Shown here piece by piece: positions 696 to 60,500 of a stretch of 64,000 bases of DNA. The first letter of the stretch is position 1. Each line of letters opens with the position of its first letter. The stretch is from positions 8,784 to 72,783 of the forward strand of contig DATNMD010000049.1 in the NCBI GenBank assembly GCA_035602505.1. The letters are read 5' to 3'. This stretch comes from Candidatus Acidiferrum sp. Lineage in GTDB: Bacteria; Acidobacteriota; Terriglobia; Acidiferrales; UBA7541. Under the pieces are notes generated by a model. It ran no database searches, was not told the DNA's origin, and saw only the letters and a list, made by a program, of their open reading frames with translations. The position numbers and the translations under genes are program-made.

Positions 696-949
696 GCTTG
701 CAACTCATTGAAAACGAGGGCCTGTATAATTTAACTTGACAAAGATAGTACCAATCATGTAATATTCGGTATGAAGTTCCGCTTCGTCATCCTTTTGCCC
801 CCTCTAAGTTCTTTAGAATGTGCACTTACAGATTTCCCGCCTTTTTCGCCAAAAACTGCTCCTGCAACTCCTTCATATTCCGCACTTACAGACACCCCCA
901 CGGTTAAGTCCTTTAGAATACGCACTTACAAAAACAGGGGGGGTGGGGG
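696..949 (+). repeat. Promoter-led intergenic element, copy A
   Basis: Left motif GCTTGCAACTCATTGAAAACGAGGG (~696-720), TTGACA 736-741, three ~25 bp motifs (806-830 AAGTTCTTTAGAATGTGCACTTACA; 866-890 AACTCCTTCATATTCCGCACTTACA; 906-930 AAGTCCTTTAGAATACGCACTTACA), then AAAACAGGGGGGGTGGGGG. Confidence 0.8.
736..765 (+). promoter_or_regulatory. sigma70-like promoter in element A
   Basis: TTGACA (736-741), 18 nt spacer, TAATAT (760-765), with AT-rich sequence upstream. Confidence 0.65.
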
Positions 950-962
950 TGCTTCCGGTTCG

Positions 963-43320: not shown

Positions 43321-44883
43321 TTACATCCCTCCCGTGGCGTTCACGCTGAGCTGTTTGCTGGCGACGATTTGCCCGTTCTTCTTGGCGACGATCATGACCT
43401 GCCACGTACCGCCGCTGTCCAATTGCCCGGCTCCCTCATAGAGTCCGTTGCCTTTTTCGGCGAGAGAAACCTGCGTGCGCATTGCCGCCATGCCCATCGC
43501 CGGCATGGCAGGCATGGAAAACGTGGCGGAGACTTCCGCGGCAGAGATGGGTCCTCCGCTCGCATCCGTGAGGTTCACACGGAAGGTATTGCTGCCCTTG
43601 TGGGGAGGAGCTGGGTCGGTTGTGAGTTCCACGTTCGCCTTTGGAGCATTGATAGCTCCTGCCGCGCCTGCGCCGGGAGGTGGAGGAACAAACGAACCGA
43701 GTGCCGCCTGCAGCTGGCTCTCGGAATCGATCAGGAAATTGGCGGACGTGACGATTTCTTCGCCCTCCTTTACTCCTTTCAGCACGATGAAATTGTCGCC
43801 AGCGCGCGCGCCTAGTTGCACCTCGCGCGGCTCGATGTAGCCGTCGCCGCGGCTAACGAAAACAATCTGGCGGGTGCCAGATTGCAGCAGGCCGCTTGTA
43901 GGAATGACCAACTGCTTTCCCATCGGCACTTTCAGCACGACGTTGACGAACATCCCCGGAGTCAATTTCAGCCCAGGATTCGAAAAGACGAGCCGCGCGT
44001 GCGCGGTGCGCGTCATCATGTCCACCTGTGGGTAGATGAAGTTCACCCGGCCTTCGAAGGTGCGGCCCGGATAAGAATCCACGGTGAGGGTCGCGCGTTC
44101 GCCGACCTTGATGCGTCCCAAGTCAATTTGAAACACCTCGGCCAAAACCCAAACGGTCGAGAGGTCCGCGACGGAATAAAGGCGCGTCTCCGGCTGAACG
44201 GTGAGATTCGGCAGCGCGTTGCGCTCGGTGATGTAGCCGAAGACCGGAGAATCGACTTCCAGTTCCTGTTGCACCTCGCCAGTGGACTCAAGTCGGGCGA
44301 TTTCCCTCTGAGACACGGCCCACTGCTTGAGTCGTTCTCTGGCAGCTTCCAAGAGGGAAGTGGCACCTTCGGCTACGCCTGTAACCGGGCTTCCGGCCAC
44401 GCGCTGTTGATTTTGTTTCGCCACCAGGTATTCACGCTCGGTGGCGACGAGGTCCGGGCTGTAGATGGTGAAGAGCGGCTGCCCTTTCCGGAGGTATTGA
44501 TAGGTGGCGTCCGCGAAGACTTTCTGAATGTAGCCGGAATACCGGACCTGCACTGTGGAAAGCCGTGTTTCATCGACCGCGACGTTTCCGGTGACGCGGA
44601 TCTCGTTTTCGACCACCTTGCTTTCGACCCGGCCGGTTTTGACGCCGATGCTTTGCAACCGTTCCGGCGAGATCTGCACCGGAACCACCGGCGCTTCTGT
44701 TGATGCAGCGGGTGTTGCCATCGAGGTGGCCATAGAATCCTGCGCGGAAGAATTCGCCTGTTTGGTTTGGGCATTTGCCATCGGCTTCGCTGCGCGATAG
44801 TGAAGCCACAATCCCACGAGGACTACAGCGAGCAAGATGTTTCCAATCAAAGCCAGCAAGAATCCCGTGCGATAGGTTTTCAT
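43321..44883 (-). CDS. cusB: RND periplasmic adaptor (CusB-like) with a C-terminal YtkA/FixH-like domain
   Basis: TIYSPDL, LKPGM-like LTPGMF, ANFLIDSES, and an extra domain with MPAMPAMGMAAM and GTWQV. Confidence 0.85.
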   Translation of the reverse strand: MKTYRTGFLLALIGNILLAVVLVGLWLHYRAAKPMANAQTKQANSSAQDSMATSMATPAASTEAPVVPVQISPERLQSIGVKTGRVESKVVENEIRVTGNVAVDETRLSTVQVRYSGYIQKVFADATYQYLRKGQPLFTIYSPDLVATEREYLVAKQNQQRVAGSPVTGVAEGATSLLEAARERLKQWAVSQREIARLESTGEVQQELEVDSPVFGYITERNALPNLTVQPETRLYSVADLSTVWVLAEVFQIDLGRIKVGERATLTVDSYPGRTFEGRVNFIYPQVDMMTRTAHARLVFSNPGLKLTPGMFVNVVLKVPMGKQLVIPTSGLLQSGTRQIVFVSRGDGYIEPREVQLGARAGDNFIVLKGVKEGEEIVTSANFLIDSESQLQAALGSFVPPPPGAGAAGAINAPKANVELTTDPAPPHKGSNTFRVNLTDASGGPISAAEVSATFSMPAMPAMGMAAMRTQVSLAEKGNGLYEGAGQLDSGGTWQVMIVAKKNGQIVASKQLSVNATGGM

Positions 44884-46226
44884 CTTTTCGCCCCTTCAAC
44901 GCGCAAAGACAGTCCAGTGAGTTGTTCGAGCCGCGCCAATGCCGTCTCGCGTTCAGCTATGCTTTTCCAGTACTCCTCGTCTAAATGGAGGACATCGAGA
45001 AACGAAGCCAGCAGTGCCGAAAAGTCCTGACGATTGTTTTGGTAGGCTGCAATGCCCGCCTGGAATCCTGCACGCGCCTGTGGCTGAAGTCCTTCACGAT
45101 AAATTGTTAGCAACTCGGCGGTTTTCTCAGCGGTTTCGTATTCGCTACGCAGTTCAAACGCGACCCGTTGTGATTGAACTTCGGACTCCCTGCGGGAGCG
45201 GTTCAGCTCAGCTTCCGCCTGCGCCAGTTCGGGGTGCTGTTTGCGGCCTCGATAAATTGGAACGCGAACGCCAAAGCTGAGCATGTAGTAGGCACGGAAT
45301 TGAGTCGGGTCAGTGCGTTGCCACATGTATTGAACATTGAAGTCCGGGTAGAAATCCTTGTGTGCAAGTTCGACTTGCAGCTTCTGTCTCTCAAGCATCT
45401 TCTCCGCGCCAGAAATCTCTGGGTTCTGCGCTTTCGTCGCGGACAGGAGTTCTTCGAAAGTAAAGGGAAGCGGCGTCTCGGGAAGTTCGGAGGGTTCTAT
45501 GTCCGGCGAAGACTGTGCGCGGTTGAGAAGTTGCTTGATTTGCGCCTGCAACTTAGCCACTTCCAGGTGATGCATGGTGATTTCGCGCAGCAGTTTCGTT
45601 TGTTCGAGTTGCGCCCGTAGCAGGTCTTGTTGATTCTCCATCCCAGAGCGGTAGCGTGCGTCCGCAGCTTTCTCAACCTGCTGGAGCAGTTCTCCGTCGC
45701 TCTCAAGAATTCCTAGCGTCTTGGACAGATAGGCAAGCTGGAAATATGCCGATTTGACTCTGGCGAGGATCGAGCGGCGCACGGACTCGTACTGCTGCTG
45801 CACAACGTCAGCATCTCGCTTCGCTATCTCGCCTTTTAGCCGCAGTTTTCCTGGGTAGGGAAAGTCCTGAGAGACGCCGAGACCAAAGTAGGCGAAGTCG
45901 CTGTTTGTGTATCCGGCGAAAGGTCTCGGGCTTCCGACATTTACCTGCTGCACATTGAATTGAGGATCGGGAAGCGTGGAGACCTGGGAAGGAACCTGCT
46001 TCGCGGCCTGCCATCCTTGGCGCGCAGCGTGAATCTGTGGATTATTCTGCTCTGCTTCCTGCAACAATTCGGCAAGCGGCGTGACGGGCTGCGTTTGATG
46101 AGGCTGGGACCCCTGCGCGAAGCTCACGCTGACTAAGACGAGGGGGGAGAGCAGAACCAGCAACCTAGTTTCAATGAATCTGAATAAGAATGTTTTTGTC
46201 CCGTTCTTTCGCACAATCACTGACAT
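44880..46226 (-). CDS. TolC/CusC family outer-membrane efflux protein
   Basis: LPDP, VSQDFPYPGKL, YPDF and AYQNN..DF; cotranscribed with the adaptor and RND genes. Confidence 0.9.
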   Translation of the reverse strand: MSVIVRKNGTKTFLFRFIETRLLVLLSPLVLVSVSFAQGSQPHQTQPVTPLAELLQEAEQNNPQIHAARQGWQAAKQVPSQVSTLPDPQFNVQQVNVGSPRPFAGYTNSDFAYFGLGVSQDFPYPGKLRLKGEIAKRDADVVQQQYESVRRSILARVKSAYFQLAYLSKTLGILESDGELLQQVEKAADARYRSGMENQQDLLRAQLEQTKLLREITMHHLEVAKLQAQIKQLLNRAQSSPDIEPSELPETPLPFTFEELLSATKAQNPEISGAEKMLERQKLQVELAHKDFYPDFNVQYMWQRTDPTQFRAYYMLSFGVRVPIYRGRKQHPELAQAEAELNRSRRESEVQSQRVAFELRSEYETAEKTAELLTIYREGLQPQARAGFQAGIAAYQNNRQDFSALLASFLDVLHLDEEYWKSIAERETALARLEQLTGLSLRVEGAKR

Positions 46227-46787: not shown

Positions 46788-47102
46788 ACTCGCCCGCAAC
46801 CCGCTCAATTCACAGTCTTTAATTTCTCACTTGACAAATAGTAACGGATGCGGTAATCTGTAGCCAGGTTCTACGGACCGTGTCCCCGTTTCGTCCTTCC
46901 TTTCTTCCGCAACCCCGTGTGTCTCCGCCACTCGACCCAGAGCAACGCCGGGGGGACGCTCGTCTACCCCGAGCACTGTCGAGGGGCCACTCACCTGAAA
47001 TAACTATCTTTAGAATCAACACTTATAAAAGTGATACAAAACAAACGACTTTAACCACCAGTAGAATCAACACTTTATGCAAAAACCCCAGGGGGGTACC
47101 CC
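46788..47102 (+). repeat. Promoter-led intergenic element, copy B
   Basis: GCAACCCGCTCAAT at 46796, promoter, pyrimidine-rich tract, embedded CCCCGAGCACTGTCGAGGGG palindrome, two TAGAATCAACACTT motifs (47011, 47062), and end GCAAAAACCCCAGGGGGGTACCCC. Confidence 0.85.
46831..46859 (+). promoter_or_regulatory. Near-consensus sigma70 promoter in element B
   Basis: TTGACA (46831-46836), 17 nt spacer, TAATCT (46854-46859). Confidence 0.8.
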
Positions 47103-47201
47103 TCACGGTATGAGAGATCGGCCCTCTTGCCCACCAGTCGCCAGTCACTATTCACCAGTCAGCACCCCGCCTCTGTGGCAAAATCCCAGCCCGGAGGAAC
47201 C

Positions 47202-47555
47202 ATGCCCGACCGTCTCGACGACTTCCAAAAATTTCGCGCCGACCTCAACGAAGAAATCCTCAGCTGCGGCCACCTTGGCATAAAACGCTTCTTTGCGCTC
47301 GATCATCAAGCCTACGAGCCCGGCCCGCTAGGCACTAAGACCAAGGAACTCCTCGGCCTCGTCGCTTCCGCCGTGCTGCGCTGCGACGATTGCATTACCT
47401 ACCATCTCGTGCGCTGCGGCGAAGAAGGCTGGAAGCGCGAAGAGGTCATCGACGCCCTCAACGTCGCCCTAATCGTCGGCGGCTCCATCACCATCCCGCA
47501 CGTCCGCCGCGCCTTCGCCCGCATGCGCGAAATCGACGGCCTTAAAAACACCTAA
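47202..47555 (+). CDS. Carboxymuconolactone decarboxylase/AhpD-like protein
   Basis: GGAGG before ATG 47202; KTKELLGLVASAVLRCDDCITYH and GGSITIPH. Confidence 0.88.
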   Translation: MPDRLDDFQKFRADLNEEILSCGHLGIKRFFALDHQAYEPGPLGTKTKELLGLVASAVLRCDDCITYHLVRCGEEGWKREEVIDALNVALIVGGSITIPHVRRAFARMREIDGLKNT

Positions 47556-47637
47556 TGTGACTACCACTTCTCACGAATTGGTTTTGTTTTTTCCGCGCGC
47601 AGTGCTAAAACATTGCACAGCACCAGAACGCACGGTA

Positions 47638-48327
47638 ATGAGCACGACCTCAACCCCAATCGCTCCCCCGCAGGAAACCACCGCTGCCCGGCTCCGCTAC
47701 TTCGGCCTCGGCGTCCTCTTTGCGCTCGTCCTGCTTCTGCCCAAGCTACTGAATATTCGCCGCGATCGCCGAAGCTGGCTCGCCTTCCGCATCCTGCTCG
47801 CGATCGCCGGCGCTTCCCTCGTTACTCTGCCCCTCAGCTTGTGGAACAGTTGGCACGCCGCCATCGCCGGCCTGGCCATGTTTCTCGCCGCCATCTTGCT
47901 TCCCGCGGCAAAGCCGGACACGACTCTGGCTGATACCGCCGCGCGGCTCGGAGCCTTGGTGATCGTCAATGGCGGCAGCTATCAAGTGGAAAACGGCCAA
48001 CTGGAATACGGGCAACTGGAAAATGGGCAACTGGAAAATGGGCCGCCCTCCGCCGTGCAGCTCTTCGTTTGTACTGAACGCATCTGGGCTCTCGATTTCC
48101 ACCAGCACCCCCTGCTGGTCATTCCCACTGCGCAAATTTCATCCGCCACCGCCGCAGAGTCCGCTGGTGACTGGATCGTTCGCATCCGCTGGGCCGACCA
48201 CACCGCTGACTTCCACTATCGCGGCATCTTTGCCGAGCACCTCGCGCGCGTGGCCGAATCCACATTGCGCAGCATAATTCACCCGCCACTCCCGGTCCTT
48301 CCCCAAAAACGCGCCGCCACCGCCTGA
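47638..48327 (+). CDS. Hypothetical membrane protein with a C-terminal PH-like soluble domain
   Basis: Three hydrophobic segments followed by a beta-rich domain; host-like codon usage. The PH-like fold is a guess. Confidence 0.6.
   Translation: MSTTSTPIAPPQETTAARLRYFGLGVLFALVLLLPKLLNIRRDRRSWLAFRILLAIAGASLVTLPLSLWNSWHAAIAGLAMFLAAILLPAAKPDTTLADTAARLGALVIVNGGSYQVENGQLEYGQLENGQLENGPPSAVQLFVCTERIWALDFHQHPLLVIPTAQISSATAAESAGDWIVRIRWADHTADFHYRGIFAEHLARVAESTLRSIIHPPLPVLPQKRAATA
47983..48042 (+). repeat. In-frame 15 bp tandem repeat x4
   Basis: CAAGTGGAAAACGGC / CAACTGGAATACGGG / CAACTGGAAAATGGG / CAACTGGAAAATGGG encode QVENG QLEYG QLENG QLENG. Confidence 0.85.
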
Positions 48328-48426
48328 ACTGGCGACACACATCCCGCGACTGAAGCCAATCTCTTCAAATCGAAACTTTCCACACAAACGCCCTCATAAT
48401 TCCGCCGTTTGTGTCAAAATATAGGC

Positions 48427-48672
48427 ATGGCGAGAGGCTGGGAAAGCAAAGACGTAGAAGCACAAGTCGAATCCAAAGAAGGTAGCAAGACGTCATCGGG
48501 ACGCGACCCAAAGAGTGCTGAGCAACAAGTCCGCGAACAGGACATCCAACAACTGCAACTCTCGCGCACCCGCATTGCGAACGACCTTGCCACCGCCACC
48601 CACCCCAATCACCGTAAATCCCTCGAAGCCGCCCTCGCCCACCTCGACAAAAAAATCGCCGATCTCTCTTAG
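48427..48672 (+). CDS. Small helical hypothetical protein
   Basis: MARGWESKDVEAQ...LQLSRTRI...RKSLEAALAHLDKKI; coherent coiled-coil-like sequence. Confidence 0.7.
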   Translation: MARGWESKDVEAQVESKEGSKTSSGRDPKSAEQQVREQDIQQLQLSRTRIANDLATATHPNHRKSLEAALAHLDKKIADLS

Positions 48673-48684
48673 CCTTCTCAGCGG

Positions 48685-48720
48685 CCTCTGTGCGCCGACC
48701 TCTGTGCCCTCTGTGTTAGG
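48685..48720. repeat. Short CCTCTGTG repeat cluster
   Basis: Three exact CCTCTGTG units (48685, 48699, 48708) between convergent genes. Confidence 0.65.
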
Positions 48721-48732
48721 TTTTTTCTTCTC

Positions 48733-49842
48733 TCACTGAATAAAATCCCCCGCCAGCCCCCAAAAATCATTCACGTAATAATGCGACAGCACATTCCCAA
48801 ACAGATAGCAGATCCCTTGGCATGGCGGAATCTCTCCGTACATCTTCTTTCCATTCGCAAAAATCTTTCGCAATGATCCATCCCGCAGCAAATTCCCCGC
48901 AATCTTCCGCAAAGGCTCGCAAGGATAAAACACGTCCCCGTTCGGATATACCCGCGGAAACATCGTCGGATAACACTGGAAATCGCGAAACCGCAGTAGC
49001 GTCTCAATCGTCTTGGGCGTTCCGTTGATCGGCTGCGTTCCAGCGCGGCGCCGCGCGATGATTTTGTCTACTAGCGCCTGATACTTTGCATTTCTCAGCA
49101 GCGCCAGATTAGGCATTTTCTCCATCTGCGCCGATTGCGCCGCGAACACAAAGTCCCGCTCGCCGCACCAATCCAGCAAGCGCTCCACTTCGCCGATATT
49201 CCACTCCTCGATCACCGTGCTGATGGTGATGCGCCGCGGACTCCCCAGCCGCTCCTTCGCAAACTCCAGGTTCTCCATTACCTTCGGCAAAGCCGCCGGT
49301 TTTGAAAGCTGATTCGTTGGATCCGCGGCCAGCGCGTCCAGGCTCACCACTAATCCCGTCACTCCCGAGAAAATTCCCGCCTTGCGGTCCAGCAACGTTC
49401 CATTCGTAATCAGCAGCACCGACCGAAACTTGCACTCGAATCGCGCCGCATGGACAATTTCCTCAATGTCGCTGCGCAGCGTCGGCTCTCCGCCCGTAAT
49501 CACGATCGAATCGCTCTCCTTCCGAATCTTTCGCAGCAACCGAATCGTGTCAGACGTCCCCAGTTCCTCGCTGAAAACGTCCGGCTCCTTCTGTGTGCAG
49601 TAAGTGCAAGCCAGGTTGCACTTGTGCGTCGCATAAAACGTCACCGCATAAGGCGCCACTACCTTCGTCCGCAAAACATGCCGCCGCCACCCATTCCGAA
49701 AATAAAGCCGGAAATTCTTCGCCACAAACGGCGCCTGCCGCACCAATCCGCGCAGTAGTTCGCGCTTCGACGGCACATGCCCAGCCGCCACGCGCTTGTC
49801 TAGCACGCTCACCGGCACAAAATTTGCAGTCTTCTCAGTCAT
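48733..49842 (-). CDS. Radical SAM protein with a probable SPASM/Twitch C-terminus
   Basis: CNLACTYC, ITGGEP and ITNG; C-terminal CYP...NGDVFYPC...C..IC. Confidence 0.9.
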   Translation of the reverse strand: MTEKTANFVPVSVLDKRVAAGHVPSKRELLRGLVRQAPFVAKNFRLYFRNGWRRHVLRTKVVAPYAVTFYATHKCNLACTYCTQKEPDVFSEELGTSDTIRLLRKIRKESDSIVITGGEPTLRSDIEEIVHAARFECKFRSVLLITNGTLLDRKAGIFSGVTGLVVSLDALAADPTNQLSKPAALPKVMENLEFAKERLGSPRRITISTVIEEWNIGEVERLLDWCGERDFVFAAQSAQMEKMPNLALLRNAKYQALVDKIIARRRAGTQPINGTPKTIETLLRFRDFQCYPTMFPRVYPNGDVFYPCEPLRKIAGNLLRDGSLRKIFANGKKMYGEIPPCQGICYLFGNVLSHYYVNDFWGLAGDFIQ

Positions 49843-49944
49843 ACTTCACACACCCAGCGTACAAGACGCGCCTCGCGGGACCAAGCGTATGGGGTGTTTA
49901 TCGCTGACAGCCATTTAGGTTATAGTCGCGCACCGTAAACGCTG

Positions 49945-52359
49945 ATGCGAAACCCTCGCAAAATTCTGGTCCCTACAGTCTTGGCTGGGTTAGCCATGAG
50001 CTCGGCCGCAATTCCAGCTCAAACCGCTTCGCACCTGCCACAATGGACGGCGCGCTGGATAACCTGCCCCGATGCGCCTGTGCGCGACGAGGCGGTGTTC
50101 CACTTTCGCAAGCTTTTCAAACTCGAAAACTCACCCGCGCATTTCATCGTGCACGTCAGCGCGGATAACCAGTTTCTTCTTTACGTCAATCAACACCGCG
50201 TCGGAAGCGGCCCTGTCCGCGCAGACCTTGCTCATTGGAGATTTGAAACCTATGACCTCGGCCCATATCTGCGCCCGGGAACAAATCTTCTGTCCGCCAC
50301 GGTCTGGAACTTCGGCGTGCACTCCGCGCTGGCCCAAATGAGCGATCGCACCGGATTGCTATTGCAGGGAGACACCGCAACCGAACAGGTCGCCGATACA
50401 AACGAAACATGGGAAGTCGAGCAAGAGAACGGCACCGCCGCCGCGGTTTCCAGCTTACCGCCGGACACCTATTTCGCTGCCGAGCCATCTGAGCGAATCG
50501 ATGCTGCGGCGTTCGACTGGGTGTGGAATACCGATTCGCAAGCCAATCTGAATCCGCGCTGGAAGAGAGCTGTTCTGATCGGTAAAGCTAGCCTGCGAGG
50601 CGAGCGTTTCCCCTCCACGAATTGGCAACTCATCCCCGATCCACTTCCCCACATGACAGTGGAGCTTGCTCCTGTTGGAACAGTTGTTCGCGCATCCGGA
50701 ATCGATCTCCCCTCGCAATTCCCGGACAAACCTTTCCGCGTCCCTGCCCACGCAAACGCCAGCATTCTTATCGACACGTCGCACCTGACCACTGCGTATC
50801 CGGAGCTAACCGTTACCGGTGGAGCGGGTAGCCTCATCCGCGCCACCTATGCGGAGGCGCTTTACGACGAGAAGGGCAACAAAGGGAACCGTAACGAGAT
50901 CGCCGCCAAACACATCGCAGGCCTCTGCGACGAATTTTTGCCCGACGGTCTGACCCGCACATTCGTTCCTCTAACCTGGAAAACGTGGCGCTTCCTCCAG
51001 TTGGATATCACGACCTCCAACGAAGCGTTGGAAGTCGACCGCCTCCGTTCCTGGTTCACTGCCTACCCTTTCGAGCAGCGCGGTCACTTCGACTCAGACG
51101 ATTCAACCCTGGATTCGATCTGGGAAATCGGTTGGCGGACTGTGCGTCTTGACGCTCACGACACGTACATGGACACTCCCTACTGGGAGCGCCTGCAATA
51201 TGTGGGAGACACGCGCATTCAGGCTTTGCTCTCCTACACTGTCGCCGGCGACGACCGCCTTGCCCGGCAAGCCATTCAGGCTTACAACGATTCACGCATT
51301 CCAGACGGCATCACGCAAAGCCGCTACCCTTCATCCTTGCCGCAATACATTCCCACCTTCTCCCTGTTGTGGATTGGCACGGTCCACGACTTCTGGCTCT
51401 ATCGTAATGATCCGGATTTTGTTCACGCACAGCTAGCCGGCACGCGCACGGTGTTGGACTGGTTTCTGCAACATCAACGCGCCGATGGCCTGCTTGGAAA
51501 ACTCCCCTGGTGGGTTTTCGTAGATTGGGCCGCCGACTTCAACGCCGGTGAGCCACCACAAGACGAAGACGGCGGTTCGGCCATTATCACACTGCAATTT
51601 ATGGAGGCCCTGCGGTACGGAGCAGAACTCGAAGAAGCCTGCGGTCTTCCCGCAAGGGCAGAGATGTATCGCGAAGCGGTGAACCGCGCGACCCAGGGCC
51701 TACGTAAACTGTGCTGGAGTCAAAAGTATGATTTGATTGCCGATACTCCCGCGCAAGCTCATTTCAGCCAGCACGCCAACATTCTTGGCATATGGCTAGA
51801 CGTCATCCCGCAAGAACAACAGCAAAGCGCACTTAAGAAGCTTCTTTCCGTAAGCGACACGCGTTTCAAGAGCAATTCAGCCCTTCCACCGATGTCGCAG
51901 GCCACCTACTATTTTCGTTTCTATCTCGCGCGCGCCTTGCAGCATGCTGGTTTGGGCAAGGAATATCTCCCGTTATTGCAGCCGTGGCGCAACATGCTCG
52001 CCCTCGGCCTGACCACATGGGCGGAACAGCCGGAGCCTACTCGCTCCGACTCCCACGCCTGGAGCGCTCATCCCAACTACGATCTGTTGACCATAGTTGC
52101 CGGAATTCGCCCCGCGAGCCCAGGATTTCGCACTGTAACTATCGAGCCGAATTTGGGGCCGCTCCACCACGTCGTCGGAACCATGCCGCACCCAAATGGC
52201 GAAATCAAAGTCGAATACACAAAAAAGGATGCCGCAGTCCATGCAGGAATCACTCTCCCGCCGGGCATTTCAGGCACGCTGCTGTGGGAAGGGAAGACCT
52301 ATCCACTCCACGAAGGCACGCAAATGATTGAAGTGCCTGGGCTGAGCACAACTCGGTGA
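49945..52359 (+). CDS. Secreted alpha-L-rhamnosidase (GH78)-like protein
   Basis: Signal peptide, VSADNQF, DTPYWERLQYVGDTR, GLTTWAE and SDSHAWS. Confidence 0.9.
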   Translation: MRNPRKILVPTVLAGLAMSSAAIPAQTASHLPQWTARWITCPDAPVRDEAVFHFRKLFKLENSPAHFIVHVSADNQFLLYVNQHRVGSGPVRADLAHWRFETYDLGPYLRPGTNLLSATVWNFGVHSALAQMSDRTGLLLQGDTATEQVADTNETWEVEQENGTAAAVSSLPPDTYFAAEPSERIDAAAFDWVWNTDSQANLNPRWKRAVLIGKASLRGERFPSTNWQLIPDPLPHMTVELAPVGTVVRASGIDLPSQFPDKPFRVPAHANASILIDTSHLTTAYPELTVTGGAGSLIRATYAEALYDEKGNKGNRNEIAAKHIAGLCDEFLPDGLTRTFVPLTWKTWRFLQLDITTSNEALEVDRLRSWFTAYPFEQRGHFDSDDSTLDSIWEIGWRTVRLDAHDTYMDTPYWERLQYVGDTRIQALLSYTVAGDDRLARQAIQAYNDSRIPDGITQSRYPSSLPQYIPTFSLLWIGTVHDFWLYRNDPDFVHAQLAGTRTVLDWFLQHQRADGLLGKLPWWVFVDWAADFNAGEPPQDEDGGSAIITLQFMEALRYGAELEEACGLPARAEMYREAVNRATQGLRKLCWSQKYDLIADTPAQAHFSQHANILGIWLDVIPQEQQQSALKKLLSVSDTRFKSNSALPPMSQATYYFRFYLARALQHAGLGKEYLPLLQPWRNMLALGLTTWAEQPEPTRSDSHAWSAHPNYDLLTIVAGIRPASPGFRTVTIEPNLGPLHHVVGTMPHPNGEIKVEYTKKDAAVHAGITLPPGISGTLLWEGKTYPLHEGTQMIEVPGLSTTR

Positions 52360-52383
52360 AGATGCCCAGTCCAGTCTGTGAAG

Positions 52384-52599
52384 CTAGCGCAGCTTTGAGA
52401 ACTCCTCGACAGAGATTCCAAGCTGTCGAAGGATTTTAAAGAAAAGCGGTGGACCGATTTCGCGGCCACCATGTATGGGTATGGTTACAGCTCGGCCATC
52501 AGAATGATTCCATCTTTCATGGCTGCCTGTTTGCCTCGTCAAAACGAATCCTAGAAGCCGCGCGATACGTTGGAAGTCGCGCGCCGTCGCGCTAGGCAT
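52384..52599 (-). CDS. hicA: Type II toxin, HicA family
   Basis: LGF..RQTGSH.RW....VTIPIH..IL.QLG; 71 aa. Confidence 0.9.
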   Translation of the reverse strand: MPSATARDFQRIARLLGFVLTRQTGSHERWNHSDGRAVTIPIHGGREIGPPLFFKILRQLGISVEEFSKLR

Positions 52600-52804
52600 T
52601 CACTATCTCAGTCGTGTCGGAAGGCAGGCTAAGGCCCTTTTCGCGATACTCCTCGGCGATAAGCCCAAAGACGTTGCTCAATTCTGCCAGCGCTGCTTCT
52701 CTCGTTTCCATCAGTGCGTAGCAACCGGCAATCGCCGGAATCTCGGCGACCCACGAACCGTCCTGCTGTCGATAAAGAACAGTCTTGTAATCTTCTAATT
52801 TCAT
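52592..52804 (-). CDS. hicB: Type II antitoxin, HicB family (short, no DNA-binding domain)
   Basis: DGSWVAEIPAIAGC...T.E.A..E...P; overlaps hicA by 8 nt. Confidence 0.88.
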   Translation of the reverse strand: MKLEDYKTVLYRQQDGSWVAEIPAIAGCYALMETREAALAELSNVFGLIAEEYREKGLSLPSDTTEIVNA

Positions 52805-52857
52805 GTTGCCTAAAGAAATTATACGCCAGAACCAGTCGCTGCCCAGGCGGATCGGAA

Positions 52858-54027
52858 CTAATCCGTGAACACCACGCCTACCGCTGTCTGACCCTTCTCT
52901 GTTTCTCCGTCGATTCGCACCACGTACCCGCGCAGTTGCATCTGCTGCATTCCGTTTATACCCGGTGTCTCCATCGTCACCTGAAGCTCGGACTGCAATC
53001 GAGGGCTGTGCTTCAAGGAAATCAGTGCACCCTGCAGCGACAAGTCCCTCACCACCGTATCCTCTTCAAACGCGTGCCCGCCTTCCGTTACGCCGCAAAC
53101 GTGCGCCCGGAATTGAGCCTCACGCCGCAAAGCCGTGCGGCTCCCCGGCATGTGTGCTTCCACGCGCTCCCCGGGCGCGCCCAGGGTAATCACCATGCCT
53201 TCGCTAGCAGCAAACACGGAATCGAACTCCTCCCGCGCATGCTTCAAAATCGTATCCACAATACGGTCCGTCGAATCCGGATCGTGATGAAACAGCACCA
53301 GCGTCTTCGCGCCCACTTCTCTCGCAACGCGCGCCCCATCGAGCCAGCTCGAATGGCCCCAACCCCGCCGTGTGCTCGCCAGTTGCTCCGGCGTGTACTG
53401 CGCGTCGTTGATGAAAATGTCCGCGCCTGCCGCTAATTCCCGCAGGCTCTGGTCCAGCTTCGCGTCGCCTGGCTCGTTGTCCGTCGCATACACCACCGAC
53501 CCCGCCGGCGTATCGATGCGAAATCCCAGACACCCCTGCGGATGGTTCAGCCACCCCGCGGTAATTTCATTCTCCCCAATTCGAAACGTGTCCCCGCCAT
53601 CCACCTCTTTGAACTTCCGCTTCGCGCTCATCGCGGACATGTCCACCGGAAAATACGGCACGGCCATCTGCGCTTCGAACACCTGCTTCAAGCTATCGCG
53701 TCCCAAAAATTTCGACCGAAAACTGTAAAAGTGAAATTCATTGTTCTCCGCATACAGCGGAGCAAAAAACGGGATTCCCTGGATGTGGTCCCAGTGGTAG
53801 TGCGTGACAAAAATATGCGTCTCCGCGGAACTTCCCGCGCTCGGCGAACTTCCGCGGTTCCCTAGCATGCGCAAACCCGTGCCGCAATCCAGAATGAATT
53901 GCGTGCCGTCCGGCGCAATTAGCTCCAGGCAAGGCGTGTTTCCGCCGTAGCGCCAAGTCGACGGATCCACCGTCGGCGTGGAGCCTCTCACACCCCAGAA
54001 GCTCAACTTGGCAAAGGGAGCGGTCAT
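52858..54027 (-). CDS. MBL-fold metallo-hydrolase fused to a C-terminal PilZ domain
   Basis: FWGVRGS, YGGNTPC, DCGTG, THYHWDH and FHHDP; then RTALR (RxxxR) and DLSLQG (DxSxxG). Confidence 0.85.
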   Translation of the reverse strand: MTAPFAKLSFWGVRGSTPTVDPSTWRYGGNTPCLELIAPDGTQFILDCGTGLRMLGNRGSSPSAGSSAETHIFVTHYHWDHIQGIPFFAPLYAENNEFHFYSFRSKFLGRDSLKQVFEAQMAVPYFPVDMSAMSAKRKFKEVDGGDTFRIGENEITAGWLNHPQGCLGFRIDTPAGSVVYATDNEPGDAKLDQSLRELAAGADIFINDAQYTPEQLASTRRGWGHSSWLDGARVAREVGAKTLVLFHHDPDSTDRIVDTILKHAREEFDSVFAASEGMVITLGAPGERVEAHMPGSRTALRREAQFRAHVCGVTEGGHAFEEDTVVRDLSLQGALISLKHSPRLQSELQVTMETPGINGMQQMQLRGYVVRIDGETEKGQTAVGVVFTD

Positions 54028-54210
54028 CTCTCTCCGCGTACCGGCCTCGCAGCCAGACCTCTGCGCGTACGCGTGCAATCAGGAAGCTCATTTGATGTTG
54101 GCAGCGAAGCTGGGGAGCGTCAACGAAATCAAGGCGGGGAAGTGTCAAACTGCGTAATAAGCCTGCGGCCGTGCTGCGCGGCGCTGTTCGAACGCGTAGA
54201 ATATTTCTGG

Positions 54211-55215
54211 ATGCACCAGCACTCTCACGGACCGGCTATCCAGCCCTGCGATTCTTCCGAATCCACGCAGCAGGGCCACGGGCATTTTGGTCATTCCCAT
54301 CACGGCCACGCTCATGCCCACCCGCATCCCACCTTAAAACCGTCCGTGCTCGGTTGGGCTATGGCCGCCACTCTCGGCCTGGTCGTGGCCGAAGTTGTTG
54401 GCGGCCTTCTCGGCCGCTCCGTCGCTCTCCTCAATGACGCGGTCCACAATCTTTCCGACGTTCCTGCCCTCGGCATTTCCTGGCTCGCCATGCGCTGGGC
54501 TCAGCGCCCCGCGGACTCGGAGAAAACATACGGCTACCATCGCGCCGGCACGCTTGCCGCTTTCACCAATGCGCTCGTGCTGGTGATTCTGTCGCTGTGG
54601 CTCGGCTACGAAGCGTTCCAACGCTTGCGCGCTCCCGTCAACGTCGTCGAAAGCTGGATGATCTGGACCTCGCTCGCAGCACTCGCCGTCAACGGTGGCA
54701 TCACCCTCGCGTTGGTACGCGGCCGCAACGATCTGAATCTGCGCAGCATTTTGATCCACAATTTTGGCGACGCTCTCTCCAATATCGCCATCATCGCCGG
54801 CGCCATTGCTATTCGAATGACCGGCGCGGAATGGCTCGACCCCGTCCTCGGCCTCGCCATTGGCATCCTTGTCCTCTGGTCCAGTATTGGAATCTTGCGC
54901 GAATCTTCCCATATTTTGCTGGAAGGGCGCCCGCGCGAAATGCACGTGGAAGAAGTCGCGCGCGCGATGCTTACCATTGAAGGCGTGCAGGAAGTTCACG
55001 ACGTGCACATCTGGTCGTTGGGCGGAGGGCACAACGCGCTTAGCTTGCACGCGCGCGTGCCAGATATGCACATGGACGAATGCGAACGCATCCTGATTTC
55101 TATCCAGGAAAAAGCGGCGAAGAATTTTCAGATTGATCACACTACGGTGCAGTTGGAGCGCGCCGGGCTTCCCGCCACCTCGGGGTACGTGATGCCGGAG
55201 CCCGCGAAAAAATAA
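54211..55215 (+). CDS. Cation diffusion facilitator (CzcD/ZitB-like)
   Basis: His-rich N-terminus, DAVHNLSD, TYGY.R, HNFGD and VHDVHIW. Confidence 0.92.
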   Translation: MHQHSHGPAIQPCDSSESTQQGHGHFGHSHHGHAHAHPHPTLKPSVLGWAMAATLGLVVAEVVGGLLGRSVALLNDAVHNLSDVPALGISWLAMRWAQRPADSEKTYGYHRAGTLAAFTNALVLVILSLWLGYEAFQRLRAPVNVVESWMIWTSLAALAVNGGITLALVRGRNDLNLRSILIHNFGDALSNIAIIAGAIAIRMTGAEWLDPVLGLAIGILVLWSSIGILRESSHILLEGRPREMHVEEVARAMLTIEGVQEVHDVHIWSLGGGHNALSLHARVPDMHMDECERILISIQEKAAKNFQIDHTTVQLERAGLPATSGYVMPEPAKK

Positions 55216-55314
55216 GTGAGCCGTCGCGTCTTGAGGCGATCTGTGCAGCGCCAGTGAGTCTTAATCTAGCCGGTATTCAGACTCGGCATTTCAGACTGGC
55301 GCGTCAGCCCGCGT

Positions 55315-56115
55315 TTAGGCTGGCGAGCGGAAATTCAGGCCGCGCTGCTCGTTGAATTGCTGTGTGGCGTTCAGATCGAGCGCATCGCGTGCAATACTGC
55401 GGCGCAGTCCATCGGGGGTGACGTAGCGCAGTGTGCCGTTCTCCCACGCATACGCCACGGCAAAGACCAGTCCGCCGTCGCGGCGCACAAAAACATATTG
55501 CTCGACATCACGCGGCGGTGCGGGCGCGCTCTCTGGTTGTACCTCGGCCGAACGCGAGGCTGGCGAGCGCCGCGGTGCACGCTGCAACGGCGGCGCATCC
55601 TCTGCGATTGCCTGTTCGTCCGCTGCGGAAGGTTGCGCGTCTGCGGCCTGTGATTCCGCTGCGGGCGCTTCCTCCACGATCACAGGTGGAGTCAACAGAA
55701 AGCCGCTGAATCCGAAGGGAGCTCCGCCGTCAAATCTGCGGCCGTGCCCGCGCCGGTTGCCGCTGATCGCCGCGAGGTGCGGATAATCAAATCCCAAGCC
55801 GGGGACATCCTGGAAGTCTGTCCCGTTGAAATTCCCGTTGGATCCGAAATTTGCGCTGTTACCGCGACGGATGGGACGACCCGTATTTCGCCCATGCGCG
55901 ATGGGTCCGCCAACTCTGGCGGCGCTTTGCATTCCCGATTGCGCTCGCGCGCTTGCGTGCGCTGCAGCCGGAGCCGCTCGAGGTATCGCGGTCGCAGGAC
56001 GGCTTGGGCCCACCGCTGCCGCCGGCGTCGAAGCGCCTGGGCCGCCGCGATGCTGCGCCGCGGCAAATGTTGGAACCGTGAGAGCAATTATTGCAAGTAT
56101 TGAAAGGCGACTCAT
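55315..56115 (-). CDS. Exported Gly/Ala/Pro-rich hypothetical protein
   Basis: Signal peptide MSRLSILAIIALTVPTFAAAQ, low-complexity middle, ordered C-terminal domain (YVFVRRDG...DLNATQQFNEQRG). Confidence 0.7.
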   Translation of the reverse strand: MSRLSILAIIALTVPTFAAAQHRGGPGASTPAAAVGPSRPATAIPRAAPAAAHASARAQSGMQSAARVGGPIAHGRNTGRPIRRGNSANFGSNGNFNGTDFQDVPGLGFDYPHLAAISGNRRGHGRRFDGGAPFGFSGFLLTPPVIVEEAPAAESQAADAQPSAADEQAIAEDAPPLQRAPRRSPASRSAEVQPESAPAPPRDVEQYVFVRRDGGLVFAVAYAWENGTLRYVTPDGLRRSIARDALDLNATQQFNEQRGLNFRSPA

Positions 56116-56310
56116 GACCGAACCTCTTCTCATCCCCCACAACCCTTTATTGCTCTTACTAGAAAGATGCGCCGCACAGAGCATTGGTTACCACTGAGCC
56201 TTGCACTTCAGCCTCTGCTCACGCGAGGTTTCGCCGCAGTCGGCGCAGGCAGAAGCTGGTGCTACTGGCGCTTCTCCCTTGCAGGGGGATGTGCTATAAC
56301 CGTCCCCGCC

Positions 56311-56529
56311 GTGGAACATGCCGTGAAGCCAGGGTCGGCGCCGGTTCGGCCGGAGCCTGCGGGGAGCGCATCTTCGCAGCTCGCGGCGCACGCGGAACAG
56401 AGCGCGGTTGCCCCCGAGGAAGATGCTTCGCAATATTGTCCCGTCTGCTCCCAGCGGCTGGAATCGCGGAGCTGCAAACTGATTTGCGCGGTGTGTGGCT
56501 ATTACATGTCTTGCGCGGACTATTACTGA
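56311..56529 (+). CDS. Small zinc-ribbon protein
   Basis: CPVC..RLESRSCKLIC..CGYYMSC; start uncertain (GTG 56311 follows TATAAC). Confidence 0.7.
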   Translation: MEHAVKPGSAPVRPEPAGSASSQLAAHAEQSAVAPEEDASQYCPVCSQRLESRSCKLICAVCGYYMSCADYY

Positions 56530-56589
56530 TATGCTTTGCGGGTCCGGCCCGGTTGCCGCTGGAACCGCGATCGACGAGGAGAGAACAAC

Positions 56590-56949
56590 ATGGCACTCAA
56601 GATGACGAACCGCGAAGTGGATGGCGTGGCTGTGGTGGCGCTGGATGGGCGCATCGTGCTCGGGGAAGAGAGCAACGCGCTTCGCGAAAAAGTGAAAAGC
56701 CTGATCGCCGGCGGGAAAAAGAAAATCATTCTCAACATGGACAACGTGACCTTCATTGACAGCGCCGGGCTCGGCACGCTTGTCGCCGCGCATCACAGCG
56801 CGAAGTCGCAAGGCGCAGCGCTCAAGCTGTGCCACTTGGGCAGCAAGTTTCAGGAAGTTTTGCAAATCACCAAGCTCCTGACGGTTTTCGACGTGTACAA
56901 CACGGAAGCCGAAGCGGTGGGCAGCTTCTCCAAAGGTGCCGGCGCATAA
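56590..56949 (+). CDS. STAS domain anti-sigma-factor antagonist
   Basis: LDGRIVLGEES..LR, VTFIDSAGLG.L and LQITKLLTVF; AGGAG upstream. Confidence 0.93.
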   Translation: MALKMTNREVDGVAVVALDGRIVLGEESNALREKVKSLIAGGKKKIILNMDNVTFIDSAGLGTLVAAHHSAKSQGAALKLCHLGSKFQEVLQITKLLTVFDVYNTEAEAVGSFSKGAGA

Positions 56950-57026
56950 TCGACGCGTAGCTGATTGCAATTGTGAAGAGGGCACGCGTCTGCGCGCCCT
57001 GCTGTTTCCTTCTGTACCACCGCGCA

Positions 57027-57442
57027 TACCCCACACCCCCGGTGTTTTGCAAAAAAGAGGCTGGAAGCTCTTGAAAATAAGGGACGGGAGTGCGGAAAAG
57101 AGGGCAAAGAGAGGCGAAAGAGGCCGCAACTGTCTGTAGGCAAAAGAGTCGGCGTTTCCGAAGGCCTGAATGGCCGAGAGTTTGGGAACGGCGAGGGGTA
57201 CACCCCCCGTGGCGACGTGAAGTATGCGCAACGTGCTGAGAATGGGAGAGATATTGACGCCACGTGGTACAGATGATGGAGGGAGTGGTGGCTGGTTACG
57301 AGAAGACACGCGGGGTTGCGGGGGAAAGGAGGGACGAAACGGGGCCACTGTCAGCAGAACCTTGGTTTAGAGGTTACCGCATCCGTTACTATTTGTCAAG
57401 TGAGAAATTAAAGACTGTGGATTGAATGGGTTGCGCGTGAGC
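57027..57442 (-). repeat. Promoter-led intergenic element, copy C
   Basis: ~140 bp 5' part homologous to copy B (46 bp identical), internal GGGGGGTGTACCCC (57208-57195), degenerate motif TCCCTTATTTTCAAGAGCTTCCAG, and end GCAAAACACCGGGGGTGTGGGGTA. Confidence 0.85.
57371..57399 (-). promoter_or_regulatory. Near-consensus sigma70 promoter in element C
   Basis: TTGACA (57399-57394), 17 nt spacer, TAACCT (57376-57371). Confidence 0.8.
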
Positions 57443-57578
57443 ATGGGAGCGAACCCAGAAGCAGGAAAAAGAAGAACCGAGTGTCCTACCCTTTTTCCCA
57501 ACCGAGCGGGGGACACCCGCCATTAGAATGATATTCTATGCCATTCTCCCCTTTGTAATCCGATCGAGTGAACACAAC

Positions 57579-60500
57579 ATGAAATTGGCATTCGAGCAGA
57601 TTCGATTGTCGGCGACCGACTTGAGCAATCACTTGGCTTGCCGGCATGTGACCACGCTGGATTTGCAAGTGGTGCGGGGCGAGAAACGGGCGCCGGACTG
57701 GGCAGCGCCAGATCTTGTGGTCATTCGGGAACGCGGTGAGCGACACGAAGCAGCCTACCTTGCGTACTTGGCGCAGCAGAAAAAACTGCAAGTGGTGAAT
57801 CTTTCGGAGATCAAAGACGAGAGGGAGCTTCTCGAGAAAACGCGAAGGCTGATGGAGGAGGGTGCGGAGGTGATTGCGCAGGGTGCGCTCACGGAAGGGT
57901 ACTGGTTTGGGCGGCCGGATGTGTTGCGGCGGGTGTCGAAGCGCGGACCGAAATGGGACTGGTCGTATGAAGTAGTGGATACAAAGCTGGCGCGGGAAAC
58001 CAAGGCAGGTACGATTTTACAGATTTCGATGTATTCGGAGCTGCTGGAAAAGGCTCAGGAATGCGCGCCGGAACGGATGTGGGTCATTCCTCCCGGCGAA
58101 GATTTTGCGGGCGAAGCGTATAGAGTGGCGGAGTATGCGGCGTACTTCCGATACGTTAAGGACCGGTTGGCGCGGGCGGCGCAGAACGGCGGCGGGAGTG
58201 GGACGTACCCAGAGCCGGTGGCGCACTGCGACGTATGCCGGTGGTTTCGCGAGTGCGATACCCAGCGGCGCGGGGAGGATCACTTATCGCTGGTAGCGGG
58301 AATTCGGCGGCAGCAACGGAACCAGTTGGAAGAATGGGACACGGAGACGATGGCGAAACTGGCCGTGCTGCCGGTGCCTCTGCAGGAGAGGCCGAAGCAC
58401 GGTTCGCGAGAAGCAATCGAGCGGGTGCGGGAGCAGGGGCGCGTGCAGGTGACGGGACGCTCGGAGAAGCGGCTGGTGCATGAGCCGCTTTTGCCGGTGG
58501 CGGACGGAATGGGTCTTTGCAGATTGCCGGAGCCCTCGGCGAACGATGTGTTTGTGGATTTGGAAGGCGATCCGTTCGTGGAGCAATCGGGACTGCAATA
58601 TATGTTCGGGTTTGCATTCAAGAATGCGGGCGACGAATGGAGTTACGAGAAGCGGTGGGCGCTGAATTGCGAGGAGGAGAAAAAGGGATTCGAGTGGTTG
58701 GTCGACGAAATCATGCGGCGGCGGGAAGCCAATCCGAAGATGCATGTGTATCACTTCGGAGCGTACGAGCCGGGAACGCTGAAGCGGCTGATGGGGATGT
58801 ATGCGACTCGGGAAGACCAGATCGACCGATTGCTGCGTGCCGGCGTACTGGTGGATTTGCACCAGGCGTTCAAACAAAGCACGCTGGCAAGCGTGGAAGA
58901 GTATTCGCTGAAAAAGATTGAGGCGTTTTACAGGTTTGAGCGGAAGACGCCACTGGATGTGTCGCGAGCGGCGATGCGGTATGTGGAGCATCGTCTGGAG
59001 TTGGGCTGGGGCGATGAAGAACTGCCGAAGTCGATTCGCGAAGCCATGGAGGGATATAACAGCGAAGATTGTTTTTCTGCGGCGAAGCTGAGGGATTGGT
59101 TGGAGGCGAGACGGGAGGAACTGGTGGAGCGCGGAGTGAGCGTTCCGCGGCCGCCGGAGAAGACTGGAGATCCTTCCGAGAAACTGCAAGAGAAACTCGA
59201 CCGTGCGGCTGCGCTAACCCAACGGCTTTCTGAGGGCATTCCGGCCAACGCAAAGGCATGGTCGGAAGAACAATCAGCACAGTGGCTCTTAGCACAGCTT
59301 TTGAGCTGGCACCGGCGCGAGGACAAACGGGCCTGGCAAGAAGGCTATCGATTCGCGGAAATGGAAGATGAAGAGTTGCTGGATGAGCGGGTAGGTCTGA
59401 CGCGTATGCGCTTTGTGGAACGAGTGGATGCCGGACGACAGGTTCCAACGGACCGGTATATGTTTGACCAGCAAAAGAGCAACGTAAGAGTCGGCAAGAG
59501 TGTGTACTTCTGGGATGACCGATTTGGCGAGGTCGTTGCAATCGACCATGCTCAGGGAATCGCTGACATCAAGAAGATGAAAAGAACGGCTGACGTCCAT
59601 CCTCCGACGGTCTACATGTGGGACGCCCCGCTCAACACCGACGCGCAGGCGGGCTCGCTGTATCGGATCGGCGACTGGGTGGCATCAAAGGAAGTCGACG
59701 CACACGGGCCCTATCGTGCGGGACGAGATTTGCTACTGCGAAGGCCGCCGCGTCTTCTGAATGGGGAAAAGCTGAAGCCGCTGGCCTCCGAAAAGCCCGA
59801 AAACACCGCAAGCCGCATTGCGCTAGCGCTAGATGACTCGGTTTTTGCGATCCAAGGGCCTCCCGGATCCGGAAAGACGTACACGGGCGCGCGCATGATC
59901 TGCGAACTGGTGAAACGAGGGAAAAAGATTGGCGTGACGGCGCTGAGCCACAAAGTGATTCGCAACCTGCTGGAGGCCGTGGTTGAGGCAGGTCGCGAGA
60001 AGGGCGTAGACGGAGTGCGATGCATGCATCGACAGCCCGGCGGCGAGGAAAGCGATGGCGTTGCGGTGGCGAAAAAAGATAATGAAGAAGCATGGGACGC
60101 TCTGCATTCGCGAAGGACTAATGTTTTGGGAGGGGTTTCGTGGTTGTGGTCGCCGGAGCCAGCATTTGAATCGGTGGACGTGCTGTTCATCGATGAGGCG
60201 GGGCAGATGGCGCTTGCGGATGTGATTGCGGTGTCGCAGGCGGCAAAGAACATGGTTTTGCTCGGCGATCCGCAGCAGTTAGAGCGGCCGTTGAAGGGGA
60301 GCCATCCGGGTGGAGCAGAAAAATCGGCGCTGGAGCATCTGCTGAATGGGCGGAAGACGATTCCAGAGGATATGGGATTTCTATTGCCGGAGAGCTGGAG
60401 ATTGCATCCTGAGGTTTGCAAATTTACCTCTGAGGTTTTTTATGAGGGCAAGCTGAGCTCGCATGCGATTGCGCGGAGCAGAGTTTTGGAAGGGCATGCA

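Follow-up and report, generated by a model that had tools for sequence, protein, structure and literature searches.

A dispersed promoter-like element and the pyrimidine-rich noncoding units that it heads in Candidatus Acidiferrum-like soil Acidobacteria

The window analyzed here is a 64,000-nt stretch of contig DATNMD010000049.1 (assembly GCA_035602505.1) from Candidatus Acidiferrum sp. It carries two inverted copies, A and B, of an intergenic element of ~135 nt, hereafter called P, which bracket a ~10.5-kb gene block. P is a multi-copy intergenic element specific to Ca. Acidoferrum/Acidiferrum-like Terriglobia (soil Acidobacteria). The two arms are probably independent members of this lineage-specific family, in which P would combine a sigma-70-type promoter cassette with a conserved C/U-rich 5′ leader and head polar noncoding units.

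The inverted arms and the P family

A repeat finder run over the window returned two pairs of inverted arms, one of 74 nt with 91% complementarity (I1, 46789-46862 and 57368-57441) and one of 68 nt with 82% (I2, 46857-46924 and 57304-57371), and no other inverted pair in the window came near this strength. Positions 46811-46856 form a 46-mer whose exact reverse complement is found at 57374-57419. This match had been described in a sequence-only reading, a note made on the window from its letters, and is borne out by the sequence at both sites and by the repeat finder. The similarity of ~140 bp followed by divergence, also described there, is confirmed by pairwise alignment of copies A and B, in which the likeness stops at ~46926 and ~57303 and the downstream sequences then diverge. 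A short G-run motif (GGGGGGTACCCCTC-like) is seen again further downstream in both copies. When up to three mismatches are allowed, a 25-mer from the core matches the window only at copies A and B, and it has no match in 100 dinucleotide shuffles.

The core is dispersed well beyond the window. The exact 46-mer is also present in another species, and its core 20-mer occurs in 15 loci of four other species-level metagenome-assembled genomes (MAGs), namely Ca. Acidoferrum SMAG_U7596 and SMAG_U9714, Terriglobales SMAG_U9455, and Ca. Acidiferrum typicum, with 3-5 copies each, a number to be read in the light of the collapse of repeats in short-read MAGs. More than 118 soil-metagenome contigs also contain the 20-mer. 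Assemblies break at the P copies. In the soil runs X1 and X2, the genome of the window is present at ~33x. At 95% likeness in run X1, the core stands at a depth of 337.7 and single-copy sequence at 32.8 (~10x); at 88% likeness, the core depth is ~2000 against 35-43 for the flanks (up to ~50x). These depths suggest ~10 to 50 P copies per genome-equivalent in the runs holding this genome, where related strains in the sample may add to the count and the upper estimate varies with the matching threshold. In a search with an nhmmer profile at relaxed thresholds, 80 loci (1.6 Mb) from other Terriglobales contained no P; the same profile did not recover a diverged unit at 736-955 of the window, described below.

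The sequence-only reading had proposed the two copies as a substrate for inversion or composite mobilization, and had said that many identical 46-mers elsewhere would count toward a coincidental pairing; the core is found in many other loci and contigs. Copies A and B could be a functional pair if they bounded a composite mobile element or served as the recombination sites for inversion of the 10.5-kb segment. The identity over 46 bp in inverted orientation is in principle long enough for rare RecA-dependent inversion, and the content of the block does vary, the gene of a GH78 rhamnosidase being missing from the otherwise colinear locus L007 of Ca. A. typicum and present in locus L016 of SMAG_U9714. 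This variation is gene gain or loss inside the block. However, the identity of the 46-mer merely reflects the invariance of the whole family, and the relatives do not treat the block as a unit. Copy A is orthologous in L007 and in locus L012 of SMAG_U9714, where P lies upstream of the same CMD/AhpD gene and the block orientation is unchanged. L016 is colinear with window positions 49076-57000, from the radical SAM gene through the STAS gene, but after the latter it has neither copy B nor an array, the STAS terminator leading straight into a convergent MBL gene. SMAG_U9714 thus keeps copy A though it lacks copy B, which points to separate histories of the two copies. Transposase, integrase, and invertase domains were also not found by Pfam among the open reading frames (ORFs) scanned within or beside the repeats, from which some small ORFs were left out. 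The unitigs of the DNA runs (k = 31) stop inside the 46-mer, so that the absence of inversion joints among them says nothing on block orientation. From these comparisons, a composite or invertible unit finds no support, a functional pair appears highly improbable, and the bracketing of the block is most likely a coincidence of two members of a many-copy family lying in opposite orientation.

Conservation of the core should be noted here. In the two orthologs of copy A, the 41-nt core is identical at 41/41 and 39/41 positions, whereas the CMD/AhpD gene has identities of 77% and 70% at its third codon positions. This difference indicates purifying selection on the core rather than recent copying, and the earlier remark that the promoter is the best-conserved part agrees with it.

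Little remains of the finding as a candidate for an invertible or composite element. It holds a practical lesson for similar scans: two inverted repeats that strikingly flank a gene block can belong to a dispersed family, which a search of related genomes and metagenomes quickly exposes.

Architecture of P and its downstream units

The anatomy of P was derived from 125 distinct copies collected by the core 20-mer. The homology begins abruptly at CCGCAACCC-ATTCAAT, and the parts follow in the order of 5′ edge, A/T block, TTGACA, 17-nt spacer, TAATCT, and C/U-rich leader. Essentially no variation is seen from the A/T stretch TTAATTTCT through TTGACA to the end of the 17-nt spacer, also at positions beyond the 20-mer used for collecting. 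TTGACA matches the −35 consensus at all six positions and is followed by a spacer of 17 nt. In the −10 hexamer TAATCT, T−12, A−11, and T−7 are kept in 96%, 98%, and 94% of the copies, respectively; the middle positions reach 84-86%. Over the 8-10 nt that follow this hexamer, conservation drops sharply; it resumes at AGGTTCTGCTGACAGTGTCCCCGTTTCGTCC and fades through a C/U-rich stretch ending near CCGCAACCCCGTGTGT. Such a pattern would be expected of a promoter plus a transcribed leader. The putative cassette would consist of the upstream box, the A/T block, TTGACA, the 17-bp spacer, and TAATCT. At 3343-3732 of locus L011, two copies are found in tandem; the first is truncated within the −10 region, and ~150 nt later a complete, more diverged copy (TTGCCA, AACAGTAAC) follows.

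Every P copy is followed by 200-550 nt of noncoding sequence composed of a few recurring modules (T1-T6) in varying order. In the 1.74 Mb examined, these modules are found only downstream of P and on the same strand. The units often end in a T2 tail (...CCTTTGTTTTCA..GCCTCTTTTGCAAAACACCGGGGGTGGGG), the conserved part of which ends in ...CCTTTGTTTTCAATAGCTTGCAGCCTCTTTTGCAAAACACCGGGGGTGGGG, where conservation stops. The median distance from the predicted start to the T2 end is ~340 nt. In P loci, 76 of the 79 T2 matches lie 131-481 nt downstream of P on the same strand. The arrays are strongly biased in composition: the P-sense strand is 58-68% pyrimidine in all 56 arrays measured, the C/G ratio has a median of 1.7, and GGA motifs are rare (0.3 per 100 nt). 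The array of copy B contains 37% C and 20% G. The T4 module in the stretch after copy A is also present in L007 and L010. If P fires, this stretch would be a 5′ untranslated region of ~336 nt.

A search with T2 only returned 34 loci in genome contigs, including three further species-level MAGs, and most of the newly found loci lack P. At the equivalent place, these arrays have unrelated heads in good agreement with the sigma-70 consensus, for example TTGACA-17-TATGCT, TTGACC-17-TATAGT, and TTGACA-17-TATCAT. An upstream match to the promoter consensus of at least 10 of 12 positions is present in the sense direction in 9 of 23 P-less T2 arrays, whereas none was found in the reverse sense or on the antisense strand. 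The consistent strand of the modules and the sense-only heads of the P-less arrays are strong evidence that head and array form one polar unit read from P to tail and that P is one class of head. A unit would thus be built of a P head, a mosaic of recurring pyrimidine-rich modules, and often a T2 tail ending in a G-run.

Several further observations concern heads and modules. Another class of head, CGAAATTCGACC-TTCAA(T/C)G ... TTTACT-17-TACCAT, lies upstream of T2 arrays in L216, L222, L230, L231, and L238. It has a CCATTCAA(T/C) box in common with the upstream part of P; this box may be the site of a common regulator, placed at a different distance from the −35 hexamer. The third unit of the window, at 736-955, lies after a minus-strand gene that starts at ~522 and before another that ends at 963, and it weakly matches modules of L007. 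Both its head and its leader resemble those of P distantly, and the leader appears to have a deletion. A short repeat (CACAGCCAGAAATCG(C/A)TGTGCCAC) is found downstream of two arrays of one MAG (L003, ~6380-6420; L014, ~6700-6740). L231 (DASZIA010000509.1), a 1.7-kb contig binned to Planctomycetaceae, has T6 and T2 modules typical of the Acidoferrum-like family and is probably mis-binned.

The arrays give no sign of structure or coding. Rfam returned nothing at gathering score in the window or in 15 P loci, and only chance-level matches at E values up to 10 around copies A and B. Neither tRNA nor tmRNA was found beside the units. The folding z-scores of the three units in the window are −1.07 (the array of copy B), +0.16, and +0.93, no better than shuffles. 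P itself folds worse than shuffles (z of +1.7 and +1.5 on its two strands), and RNAalifold predicted no pair from 45 T2 copies. A structured RNA was rejected on the basis of these folds and the RNAalifold result. Hammerhead-like motifs and a 5′-3′ pairing of CCCCGCAACCCC with the G-run tail were judged by eye, and neither the folds nor Rfam support them. Coding arrays were also rejected, since long ORFs such as 56188-57348 (−) have no Pfam match and 1-nt indels among T2 copies break the frames, leaving no conserved reading frame. Whatever their role, the modules would therefore act as primary sequence.

Between P and the CMD/AhpD gene, the module content differs in all three species. The ortholog of copy B in the metagenome locus L138 has an extra 195 nt, consisting of half a T6 module and a T4 module, flanked by direct T6 repeats; this has the signature of recombination between modules rather than of transposition. 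These comparisons show turnover of modules by recombination between orthologous loci. The sequence-only reading had offered, as its other explanation, two independent insertions with selection on the promoter itself. Independent copies with selection on the promoter come close to the data, given the orthologous core set against the third codon positions, and this is the better of its two explanations.

P and its modules could instead be non-autonomous selfish DNA, resembling miniature inverted-repeat transposable elements (MITEs) or the mosaics of repetitive extragenic palindromes (REPs), bacterial interspersed mosaic elements (BIMEs), and BOX elements, with the likeness to a promoter being incidental or a by-product. 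The dispersed intergenic location, indifferent to the orientation of the next gene, the mosaic make-up with modules gained or lost between orthologous loci, the truncated copy beside a complete one in L011, and the breaking of assemblies at copies are all in line with this. However, the P profile gave no inverted match close to where the units end, the 5′ edge CCGCAACCC has no complementarity to the G-run tail, and neither terminal inverted repeats nor target-site duplications were seen for the P units. The indel of L138, being flanked by homologous T6 copies, points to recombination. Orthologous sites retain their copies, with a core far better conserved than synonymous sites, and the units have a strict head-to-tail polarity with independent sigma-70-like heads before the same tail module. 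We judge selfish DNA to be quite unlikely. A phage or mobile-element origin was set aside, since the viral contigs searched had no P or T2 match.

According to a crude gene caller based on codon usage, 46 copies are followed by a co-directional gene and 36 by a convergent one; the former number is somewhat raised by purine-poor pseudo-ORFs. The co-directional genes are mutually unrelated; by Pfam they include CMD/AhpD, cytochrome P450, proline dehydrogenase, and Ku, and others, judged by us from N-terminal sequences, are presumably a CoA-transferase subunit, an MFS transporter, and a protease. Given this diversity, P does not belong to one gene family as its own promoter, and in nearly half of the units there is no downstream gene for it to serve. 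In the mechanism that we propose, about half of the units would provide a promoter plus a long untranslated leader to a co-directional gene, as copy A would for CMD/AhpD, and the others, facing a convergent gene, would yield only a stand-alone noncoding RNA, as in copy B. From the latter copy, ~415 nt of noncoding DNA lead up to the convergent STAS gene, which is met at its 3′ end.

Transcripts and the nature of the core

Soil metatranscriptome X21 covers the neighborhood unevenly, from zero over GH78 up to ~100x elsewhere, and for this reason we take its signal as the behavior of RNA rather than of contaminating DNA. The 2025 runs of study P4 have an even, low depth in line with DNA and carry no information on expression. 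In X21, ~50-60 contigs match P, and further contigs match T2. Locus L008 is the only one where unit and gene could be compared, its flanks matching X21 contigs closely. The depth there is 48x over the upstream flank and the 5′ half of P, 66x over the leader and first module, 13-21x just after the G-run tail, and 9x over the downstream gene. The noncoding unit is thus several-fold above the downstream mRNA, and the abundance falls at the tail.

From these data and the anatomy, we infer with moderate confidence that P is an active sigma-70-type promoter, the invariant spacer and upstream box of which would be bound by one or more regulators, and that it would drive an untranslated, unstructured, C-rich, and G-poor RNA.

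A number of observations weigh against this interpretation. The −10 hexamer agrees with the consensus at only three of six positions, a consensus promoter scan requiring at least 4/6 per hexamer does not call P, and the invariance of the 17-nt spacer is unaccounted for by sigma-70 recognition. X21 consists of unstranded RNA unitigs, and the start position is only predicted. The promoter core itself occurs in this RNA, since a 37-nt unitig over −12 to +24 has a depth of 220, and contigs bridge the −10 hexamer and the predicted start without a step at the latter. In L008, the contig uniting the upstream flank with the 5′ half of P is nearly as deep as the leader (48 versus 66). In X21 at least, most RNA does not begin at the predicted start. 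No sense-strand terminator was found after the arrays, the tails of which rather resemble weak terminators of the opposite strand.

The core RNA in X21 could come from antisense transcripts, for example of divergent neighbors, or from read-through. The ratio of core to leader depth is 2.3-3.1 in RNA and 3.8-10.6 in DNA, a comparison between different communities that is confounded by the matching threshold. On the opposite strand at 47085-47103 (−), and in T2 tails generally, short C/G hairpins followed by a T-run resemble terminators. The G-run tails might stop transcription entering the arrays from convergent genes.

The same observations lead to another explanation, in which the core is not a promoter but belongs to a longer transcribed unstructured RNA, or is a DNA site, recognized via its primary sequence by a protein or a complementary RNA, with the start elsewhere. 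The presence of the core in metatranscriptome RNA at leader-like depth and contiguous with the upstream flank, a spacer invariance that sigma-70 does not require, and the 3/6 match of the −10 hexamer would all fit. On the other hand, the 5′ edge is sharp, and upstream of it nothing is conserved that might be a promoter. In copy B and several other loci, a divergent upstream gene starts within ~90-150 nt (the helicase gene of copy B at 86 nt from the P edge), so that read-through from upstream cannot supply the forward transcript. The fold of P, worse than that of shuffles on both strands, does not suggest an RNA site, and P-less arrays hold unrelated sigma-70 matches (10-11 of 12 positions) at the same position. 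A non-promoter core is thus unlikely in our judgment, and an active promoter is kept as the working interpretation below.

The role of the RNA driven by such a promoter can only be suggested. Rho classically acts on unstructured C-rich, G-poor RNA, and CTCTTT and GCTCTTT motifs resembling boxA occur in the modules; this composition and these motifs make Rho/Nus-dependent attenuation or insulation one candidate role. Speculatively, the RNA would act via its primary sequence, either in this way or as a platform for a pyrimidine-binding protein. A broader and rather doubtful proposal is that tens of autonomous units per genome, each with a sigma-70-like head, unstructured pyrimidine-rich modules, and a G-run tail, make abundant untranslated RNAs which work through primary sequence as a protein sponge or platform or as a Rho/Nus attenuator-insulator, P being one class of head that is kept invariant by a spacer-binding regulator. 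If this were true, the units would be a kind of bacterial noncoding element so far undescribed.

The gene block, related elements, and implications

The features of the window are listed in Table 1. The gene list of the sequence-only reading is broadly right by Pfam, but its orientations need correction, as the radical SAM gene is on the minus strand and the CDF and STAS genes are on the plus strand. Its statement that both promoters point inward over the genes holds geometrically; copy A is, however, co-directional with just two genes, and copy B is convergent.

Table 1 Positions of P copies, noncoding units, and genes in the window
Feature	Position	Strand	Remarks
Third, diverged unit	736..955	+	head TTGACA-18-TAATAT (736-765), CU-rich modules (CTTTAGAATGTGCACTT...), G-run tail CAAAAACAGGGGGGGTGGGGGTG
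OEP	44880-46226	-	Pfam
Copy A of P	46789..46926	+	5′ box CCGCAACCCGCTCAAT, A/T block TTTAATTTCT, C/U-rich leader to ~46926
Promoter-like parts of copy A	46831-46836; 46837-46853; 46854-46859; ~46866		−35 TTGACA; 17-nt spacer; −10 TAATCT; predicted start
Noncoding stretch from copy A to the CMD/AhpD start	46927..47201	+	T4-type module ~47000-47112 ending in CAAAAACCCCAGGGGGGTACCCC
CMD/AhpD family, 117 aa	47202..47555	+	true ATG 47202; Pfam; first co-directional gene after copy A
256-aa ORF, no family	47557-48327	+	
Radical SAM	48733-49842	-	Pfam
GH78 rhamnosidase	49945-52359	+	Pfam
HicA and HicB-like	52384-52804	-	Pfam
MBL-PilZ	52858-54078	-	Pfam
CDF	54073-55215	+	Pfam
STAS-domain gene	56536-56949	+	Pfam; convergent with copy B
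Hairpin between STAS gene and array of copy B	~56985-57010		
Array after copy B	57022..57302	-	T6-type module ~57275-57185, then T2 tail 57160-57025 ending in GCAAAACACCGGGGGTGTGGGGTA
Copy B of P	57303..57441	-	leader to ~57303; orthologous metagenome copy L138
Promoter-like parts of copy B	57399-57394; 57393-57377; 57376-57371; ~57364		−35 TTGACA; spacer; −10 TAACCT; predicted start
RNase_H-like/SF1 helicase	57528-61010	+	Pfam; divergent from copy B

The long minus-strand ORFs at 55315-56184 and 56188-57348 have no Pfam match, and we read the latter as a probable artefact of purine-poor sequence. A 120-aa ORF just upstream of the STAS gene (56167-56529, +), ending in CxxC...CxxC, also has no Pfam match; its region is conserved in L016 and L138. 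The stretch at 48328-48732, which separates the 256-aa ORF from the radical SAM end, has the top X21 depth nearby (~104x) and holds an 87-aa ORF (48409-48672, +) with no Pfam match. In the DNA runs, variants skipping 74-79 nt are found at 48662-48742. Four copies of a 37-nt direct repeat (family D1), spaced by 153-174 nt, lie at 29762-30287 and are probably a repeated domain within a gene.

We place P among the promoter-bearing dispersed intergenic repeats. BIMEs of Escherichia coli are built from palindromic REP units, and the pneumococcal BOX elements (boxA-boxB-boxC) fold into stable hairpins. Like these, P units are intergenic, multi-copy, made of a few modules in variable number and order, and could be co-transcribed with their neighbors; their modules differ in having no consensus structure, a strongly strand-asymmetric composition (64% pyrimidine), and a fixed orientation after a promoter-like head. 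Multi-copy sRNA gene families with near-identical promoters, such as Qrr and the sponge RNAs of the CsrB/RsmXYZ type, encode structured RNAs that present their motifs in hairpin loops and have intrinsic terminators. The P units share with them several paralogous noncoding units per genome, a conserved promoter region, and repeated short RNA motifs, but no structure or sense-strand terminator was detected in the P units, and GGA motifs are few.

The closest described concept is that of putative mobile promoters (PMPs), similar noncoding sequences with promoter features that lie before unrelated genes (Matus-Garcia, Nijveen & van Passel 2012; PMC3575422). PMPs were defined by at least 80% identity over at least 50 nt upstream of non-paralogous genes of one genome, at −150 to −50 from the start codon (PMC3575422). 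P is alike in its occurrence across related species and, as most PMPs, in having no Rfam match. The similarity of copies A and B (91% over 74 nt and 82% over 68 nt, with unrelated flanking genes) is within these limits. The position is not, as copy A lies ~275-415 nt before the ATG at 47202 and copy B has no co-directional gene. Unlike PMPs, ~44% of the P copies with a called downstream gene face a convergent one, and P is tied to a polar array of further repeat modules. The Correia elements of Neisseria are promoter-bearing MITEs with terminal inverted repeats and TA target duplications (PMC3575422). P resembles them as a short dispersed repeat that would be able to supply promoters to adjacent genes, whereas their terminal repeats and TA duplications were not seen in P units.

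The family is unusual in that its 41-nt promoter-like core has hardly changed between species that differ by 23-30% at synonymous sites. Its arrays exchange modules between loci and, at the one measurable locus, have a soil metatranscriptome level above that of the neighboring gene. The host lineage consists of abundant, uncultured soil bacteria. If P is an active promoter, one regulatory input may be common in these organisms to stand-alone RNAs and to a set of unrelated genes, among them those for CMD/AhpD, proline dehydrogenase, P450, and Ku.

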